The notes under the pieces are model-generated. The model saw nothing but the letters and a program-made list of their open reading frames with translations. It was not told the origin of the DNA and did not search any database. Shown here piece after piece: positions 25,674-26,753 of a DNA stretch of 64,000 nt. Positions within the stretch are counted from its first letter, which is position 1; every line of letters starts with the position of its first letter. The DNA is from Rhynchobatus australiae (lineage: Eukaryota): positions 25,919,715 to 25,983,714 of the forward strand of contig JAUZTB010000062.1 of assembly GCA_034780895.1 (NCBI GenBank), given 5' to 3'. The translations under genes were made by a program, and so were the position numbers.

Positions 25674-26200
25674 TTAGTCCCAGCCAAAGTTCTGTCCCGT
25701 CATTTGGTAAAATTTCATGTTGAAAGGCCTATAGAAGTCTCTCAGCCTCCGAACCACGTCTGGGTCAATGTTGGGATGTGTCCTGCCTTTTGTTTTGCCC
25801 AGGCAATGGGGCTTGCTGCTTCCTTCTGGCTTCTTCAAGCAGAGAAAGCCCTTGGTCTTGTTGAAGTAAAAATGTTTGTCTGTGATGATTCTCTTGAGAC
25901 CCAAGAAGTCTTGTACTTTGCCTAGCTCTCCGGCTGGATCATTGATTAGCCTCTCTCCACTCACAAACAAGATTTGTCCCATAGGGAAATAGAGAAGCCA
26001 ATTCTCCAGGTGCTTGGCATAGATGCCAATCTGGATCGCATTCCACGAGCTGTCAATCAAGCCTGAAGTCCTGTTTTTGAAGACTAAGCTCTCAAAACTG
26101 GGTATGTTGGGTTTCTTCGAGAGAGCTTGTGTGTAGTCAGAGATAGCTCGAGTGACAGGATCCCGAACCACCAGTATGAGTTTGGCATCCTTGGACATTG
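25674..26200 (-). CDS. HS3ST3B1: Heparan sulfate 3-O-sulfotransferase 3, terminal exon copy B (5' end lost in gap; includes stop codon)
   Basis: 174 aa from [22 protein letters not shown] (3'-PB motif) through [11 protein letters not shown] to [15 protein letters not shown] at 25674-25676. Confidence 0.9.
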
Positions 26201-26300
26201 NNNNNNNNNNNNNNNNNNNNNNNNNNNNNNNNNNNNNNNNNNNNNNNNNNNNNNNNNNNNNNNNNNNNNNNNNNNNNNNNNNNNNNNNNNNNNNNNNNNN

Positions 26301-26753
26301 CAAGGAAAGCCCTTGGTCTGGTTAAAGTAAAAATGTTTGTCTGTGATGATTCTCTTCAGACCCAGAAAGTCTTGCACCCTGCTTAGTTCTCCTGCTGGGT
26401 CACTGATCAGCCTCTCTCCACTCACAAACAGGATCTGACGCATTGGGAAGTACTGCAGCCAATTCTCCAGATGCTTGGCATAGATGCCAATTTGAATAGC
26501 ACTCCATGAAGTGTCAATCAGGCCTGTAGTCCTGTTTTTGAAAGTCAAGCTCTCAAAACTGGGGATATCGGGCTTTTTTGAGAGAGTTTGTGTGTAGTCA
26601 GAGATTGCCCGAGTGACAGGATCCCGAACCACCACTATTAGTTTGGCCTCCTTGGACATTGCATAGATTCGAGCAGCTGCTTCCTTAGTGACAAAGTAAC
26701 TGGGAGTTTTCTCCATGGTGATTTGACCGTCCAGTGTCTTAGGCATCAGGTCC
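26301..26753 (-). CDS. HS3ST3B1: Heparan sulfate 3-O-sulfotransferase 3, exon 2 copy A (has splice acceptor; 3' end lost in gap)
   Basis: Acceptor tgtgttttattttAG|G at 26755/26754. The phase fits exon 1, giving [23 protein letters not shown], and the frame stays open to NQTKGFP at the gap. This copy could derive from the 3A1 paralog. Confidence 0.88.

Follow-up and report, generated by a model that had tools for sequence, protein, structure and literature searches.

An apparent tandem catalytic exon at the HS3ST3B1 locus of Rhynchobatus australiae: most likely an assembly error joining HS3ST3B1 and HS3ST3A1 sequence

Organisation of the HS3ST3B1 locus

The window, a stretch of 64,000 nt from contig C62 of the Rhynchobatus australiae genome assembly, carries on the minus strand the coding part of an HS3ST3B1 exon 1 (48792..49330), with its ATG at 49330 and a GT donor after 48792, and, further along the same strand, two partial copies of exon 2. 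Exon 1 shows 99% identity over 179 aa to the HS3ST3B1-like protein of Pristis pectinata (P0001), as fits a ray closely related to the sawfishes, and its top 16 named matches are either 3B1-like proteins or a Callorhinchus sulfotransferase. Copy A (26301..26753, minus strand) possesses an acceptor, with the exon start at 26753, to which the donor of exon 1 splices in frame; it runs from there to the end of its contig, the final 166 nt to the stop being absent. Copy B, also on the minus strand, begins only 92 nt into the exon and reaches a stop codon at 25676-25674. A placeholder gap of 100 N (26201..26300) separates the two. Both exon copies are incomplete in the assembly, copy A having no stop and copy B no acceptor, and the gap could hide these parts.

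The same 119 aa of the sulfotransferase domain are encoded by 26659-26301 in copy A and by 26198-25840 in copy B, and both are open reading frames across these 119 codons. The copies differ at 51 of 359 nt and at 15 of 119 aa; counted by codon, there are 28 silent and 15 non-silent differences (dS ~0.66, dN ~0.06). The homologous overlap begins 2 nt earlier than originally noted, and the contigs flanking the gap overlap by 361 nt of paralogous sequence, 310 of them identical. A preliminary description of the window had reported a same-orientation pair encoding one 119-aa stretch and split by 100 N, with 15 amino acid and many silent differences, no stop or frameshift in either copy, contigs that break within coding sequence and a divergence too great for alleles; each of these points was reproduced, the dS value being far beyond the allelic level.

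Paralog assignment of the two exon 2 copies

The 15 residues that differ between copies A and B were scored against the 3B1 and 3A1 proteins of 16 cartilaginous fishes (eight of them rays), the relatives being compared as proteins; each of these 16 species has two full-length proteins, one 3A1 and one 3B1. Copy A agrees with ray 3B1 at 14 of the 15 diagnostic residues in seven of eight rays and at 10 of 15 in Narcine, and copy B agrees with ray 3A1 at 13-15 residues in all eight species (15/15 in Pristis, 14/15 in four rays, 13/15 in three). Over the 119 aa, copy A matches Pristis 3B1 at 118 positions, as copy B does Pristis 3A1 (P0243). A tree of 36 rows, in which the bootstrap is not fully settled, places copy A with the eight ray 3B1 proteins (96/86) and copy B with the eight ray 3A1 proteins (100/99). 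The GFLC of copy B, although odd at first sight, is what ray 3A1 normally has.

In the cartilaginous fishes, 16/16 3B1 proteins end at WD and 16/16 3A1 proteins carry one extra residue (N in 15, D in one); copy B ends with WD-stop, unlike a 3A1-type C-terminus. Because copy B combines 3A1-type residues with WD-stop, it is read as a hybrid, with a 3A1 body and a 3B1 end. The body, corresponding to HS3ST3A1 exon 2 minus its first 92 nt, spans 25746..26200 on the minus strand (lower boundary approximate). The 3B1-type frame end and the start of the 3' UTR lie at 25630..25678 on the same strand, as indicated by the C-termini of the 16 cartilaginous-fish pairs and by the WDN-stop alternative found in the public sequencing runs X2 and X7. 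The intervening segment (25679..25745, minus strand, boundaries approximate) is probably a tract common to both paralogs near the end of exon 2 and the likely point of crossing from 3A1 to 3B1, judging by the ends of contigs in runs X1, X2 and X7.

HS3ST3 exons elsewhere in the assembly

When the catalytic part of exon 1 was searched against the genome, nine matches were obtained. Two HS3ST3 exon 1s are present on contig C62, that of 3B1 on the minus strand (25,968,508-669) and that of 3A1 on the plus strand (26,329,287-442), arranged head-to-head about 360 kb apart. The HS3ST3A1 exon 1 is intact and open (C62:26,328,879-26,329,448, plus strand), and its best matches are HS3ST3A1-like proteins (94% to Leucoraja).

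A DNA search of the assembly with copy B found six matches, namely both copies in the window and four at 73-75% identity from other family members. Protein searches with the 5' part and the 3' part of exon 2 gave eight matches each, including one copy of each part at the HS3ST3B1 locus and, in this gappy assembly, none downstream of the 3A1 exon 1. A BLAST search for exon 2 over the 200 kb downstream of the 3A1 exon 1, a stretch with 58 gaps and 18,827 N, returned chance-level matches only, and two 30-nt motifs from the loose ends of other organisms' contigs (3A1-type intron and 3' UTR) had no match in the assembly and did not locate the site of the 3A1 exon 2. Copy B itself, on the minus strand at 25.95 Mb, does not lie downstream of the 3A1 exon 1 (plus strand, 26.33 Mb) on the same strand. 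A separate intact HS3ST3A1 exon 2 elsewhere in the assembly, which the preliminary description had proposed to look for, was not found by these searches. The tally for HS3ST3 is two exon 1s, two exon 2 middles, one 5' end and one 3' end, and these counts are lower bounds, the assembly being incomplete, so that absence shows little; with that reservation about a gappy assembly, the partner gene HS3ST3A1 is left without exon 2.

Another gene of the HS3ST2/3/4/6 type was observed on contig C62 about 6.5 Mb away, at 32.44 Mb and 32.56 Mb on the minus strand; its exon 2 is 75% identical to copy B.

Contigs in public sequencing runs

Four of 24 public runs were compared over 25630-27300, and all of their records are contigs. 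Run X1 is perhaps the source data, in which case it is not independent; X2 and X7 represent other organisms. Run X12, guessed to be RNA, had no record matching over this range.

Run X1 contains a 485-nt contig identical to 25716-26200 and another, of 1,087 nt, that agrees fully with copy A as far as 26328. A further X1 contig of 112 nt covers 25716-25827 with eight differences and was not found in the assembly. The other paralogs in the assembly differ at 24-40 of those 112 nt; eight differences are too few for these paralogs, and the contig is most likely the 3B1 tail that the assembly dropped. The 485-nt and 112-nt contigs both stop at 25716, the behaviour expected of two paths that converge on a common tract. 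A 143-nt tail contig of run X7 was also considered as a 3B1 tail and dropped, its listed changes being without the 3B1-type Gln.

The runs from other organisms contain alternative paths at the ends of both copies. In X7, the contig of copy A runs beyond 26301 in frame, reading a further ten residues, and the contig of copy B extends past 26200 and is still exonic there. One X2 contig, 1,996 nt long, has the letters of copy B at 26606, where this was verified, and at 26543-46; it departs from the window sequence at 26748 into a different intron, and its acceptor gives R-N-L-M, which is the junction of Pristis 3A1. At the other end, contigs of both X2 and X7 depart from the window sequence at 25678 and read WDN-stop, followed by a different 3' UTR. 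No joint was present among the public-run contigs, and none of the records crosses the 100-N gap or covers the exon from end to end; the corrected layout is therefore not directly visible in them.

Gaps of 100 N and the HS3ST2 locus

The window and a further 200 kb were examined for overlapping sequence at the flanks of 78 gaps. Overlapping flanks occur at 7 of 22 gaps of 100 N versus 1 of 56 other gaps (Fisher p = 0.0004, or 0.0013 without the HS3ST3 gap), which indicates that 100 N often marks overlapping contigs.

HS3ST2 on contig C127 shows the same kind of misassembly as HS3ST3 on C62 (C127:36,798,301-36,802,130, plus strand). The HS3ST2 exon 1 is 97% identical to Pristis HS3ST2-like; the exon 2 that follows it agrees with Pristis HS3ST2 at every one of 156 aa before continuing with the tail of another paralog (58/75 aa), and the true HS3ST2 tail (75/75) starts directly behind a 100-N gap some 3 kb beyond. 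Both tails begin with an identical 77-nt tract, and the switch of paralog follows this shared tract. The first exon 2 could also belong wholly to the other paralog, if the 5' parts of the two genes are identical; it is misplaced either way. A second exon 1 on C127, which we take to be that of HS3ST4 or an HS3ST4-like gene, lies head-to-head with the first about 320 kb away on the minus strand, and its strand has no exon 2 close by. At C127:28,901,632-28,902,246, on the minus strand, there is also a complete HS3ST exon 2, near which the exon 1 search gave no exon 1.

Two further pairs of direct repeats are present in the window, 1688-1788 and 2219-2319 (95% over 101 nt), flanking a 430-N gap, and 60989-61235 and 62799-63045 (90% over 247 nt), near a 254-N gap; they are probably either repeat elements or uncollapsed overlaps. 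ORF fragments at about 5350-7240 and at 22025-23135 resemble what are presumably remnants of LINE reverse transcriptases of the CR1 type.

Origin of the apparent tandem duplication

Copy A is very probably the real exon 2 of HS3ST3B1, from the acceptor to the end of its contig, and copy B the exon 2 of HS3ST3A1, misplaced by the assembly, the two forming a scaffolding chimera; the tandem duplication is most likely not a real feature of the genome. The preliminary description had put forward both such a chimera of 3A1 and 3B1 exon 2 and a real tandem duplication with alternative catalytic exons. The latter finds no support, each copy grouping with a different paralog. The former is supported by direct observations, namely the assignment of each copy to a paralog, copy B's hybrid end, the orphaned 3A1 exon 1 and the alternative paths in the public contigs, and by the matching error at HS3ST2. 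It had also been suggested that long reads with a single exon 2 here, and one of the copies mapping to the HS3ST3A1 locus, would speak against a duplication; by sequence, copy B does belong to HS3ST3A1, in agreement with one part of this expectation.

The error may have arisen from tracts identical between 3A1 and 3B1 that would have been longer than the assembly word and would have tangled the assembly graph. A 32-nt identical tract lies at 26356-26325, inside the overlap, and the public-run contigs suggest a second shared tract of roughly 65 nt just before the stop. The 3B1 exon 2 would likely have been broken near the first tract. Extension of the 3A1 body would likely have passed through the second tract and emerged in the stop and 3' UTR of 3B1, after which the scaffolder would likely have placed the two overlapping contigs one behind the other, with 100 N between them as a placeholder. 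Lost on the way would have been the tail of 3B1 together with the acceptor and 3' UTR of 3A1. The animal itself would have an ordinary layout of two head-to-head genes with two exons and one catalytic exon each.

The misassembly of paralogs collapsed at identical tracts is a known general phenomenon. The present case resembles it in the contigs that end within coding sequence near shared tracts, in the fixed 100-N join and in the partner gene left without an exon, and differs from it in that the paralogs are just 86% identical over the overlap, the bodies being kept apart and short shared tracts being implicated. In PMC3364897, human HS3ST3A1 and HS3ST3B1 are placed 700 kb apart, with sulfotransferase domains that are 99.2% identical, and PMC10219595 describes domain sequence and specificity as shared by human 3-OST-3A and 3B; the human genes are a linked pair with distinct exon 1s and similar catalytic domains, like the pair in the ray. 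Copy B aligns over 174/174 aa with the human 3-OST-3A1 structures 1T8T, 1T8U and 6XKG. Compared with the human pair, the ray exon 1s are about 360 kb apart, the exon 2 proteins differ at 15/119 aa in the overlap, and both exon 2s stand at the 3B1 locus in the assembly.

A real rearrangement, in which the catalytic exon of HS3ST3A1, itself or as a copy, moved behind the HS3ST3B1 exon 2 and one exon 1 could use either domain, has only a small chance of being correct. Both copies are open, the searches at the 3A1 locus found no 3A1 exon 2 and no intron or 3' UTR motif, and the real size of the 100-N gap is not fixed, so that it could hide sequence; this hidden sequence, however, must amount to at least 258 nt of coding sequence plus UTR and intron, and copy B would in addition have to be recombined onto the 3B1 stop and UTR. 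The intact 3A1 exon 1, the two full-length proteins in each of the 16 cartilaginous fishes and the recurrence of the same layout at HS3ST2 behind another 100-N gap also argue against a moved exon, although the relatives, compared as proteins, could have an extra, unannotated exon at their loci. It is similarly improbable that in this animal one membrane-anchor exon could choose between two catalytic domains whose differences lie beside the substrate site, with the 3A1 exon 1 left without a catalytic exon.

Heterozygous gene conversion is very improbable. One 3B1 allele would carry a 3A1-type exon 2 body, and both alleles would have been written in tandem, which would account, with no misjoin, for a 3A1 body that runs into the stop and UTR of 3B1; exchange of this kind is suggested by the near-identity of the paralogs within species in many vertebrates. 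The ray paralogs, however, are distinct at these sites in 8/8 species, and the 3A1 locus would still need an exon 2 of its own, which was not found. Copy B would also be expected to be over-represented, with three doses versus one, and the depth of the X1 contigs, a weak measure, is 4.8 for copy B versus 8 for copy A. Two ordinary alleles of one exon left uncollapsed, as many 100-N gaps in this assembly are flanked by uncollapsed overlaps, can practically be dismissed, being ruled out by the dS of ~0.66 together with the clean match of the copies to two different paralogs across rays.

As most likely an assembly error, the tandem copy itself is of little biological weight; its consequences concern annotation. 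In gene models built from this assembly, HS3ST3B1 would come out hybrid or truncated and HS3ST3A1 would falsely seem to have been lost; the intact exon 1 of HS3ST3A1 without an exon 2 would lead an annotation to call the gene, wrongly, lost or truncated. Models of HS3ST2 would be affected likewise.

Divergence of HS3ST3A1 in rays

A by-product of the comparison, modest but real in the sampled proteins, is the divergence of exon 2 between 3A1 and 3B1 in rays, together with an Ala at the position of Thr256. Over the 193 aa of exon 2, the two paralogs differ at 14-20 positions in 8/8 rays; across 8 sharks and chimaera the range is 0-9, and 16 of the 17 pairs from bony vertebrates fall within 0-10. 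The pairs were matched by species name, and Anguilla (70/169, apparently out of register) was left out. In ray 3A1 (proteins P0121, P0122 and P0240-P0246; 25677-26198 in the window, minus strand), Ala takes the place of Thr256 in the primate 3A1 protein, the numbering of which was checked on three 406-aa primate proteins, and an Asn adjoins Trp283. Among 287 proteins with the motif, Thr is found in 275 and Ala in nine, which are the eight named ray 3A1 proteins and one further member of the skate 3A1 cluster; copy B also carries this Ala.

Thr256 and Trp283 were reportedly studied as 3-OST-3 residues by Moon et al. 2012. PMC7183009 names both among the residues implicated in substrate recognition, listing them under 3OST-1. 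Ray 3A1 may have a different substrate preference, as the position of the replaced residue suggests, and has possibly escaped homogenisation with 3B1. A literature search that covered few subscription journals found nothing on gene conversion, concerted evolution or shark and ray evolution of HS3ST3A1/HS3ST3B1, and a search of the same reach with combined terms found nothing on Thr256 (T256) of 3-OST-3 and substrate.

A single position of copy A also deserves mention. At 26648, copy A encodes Glu (MSKE), and all of the ray proteins compared, 8/8 3A1 and 8/8 3B1, have Asp (MSKD); run X1 shows no other letter at this position, and the Glu may be a true change in this animal.
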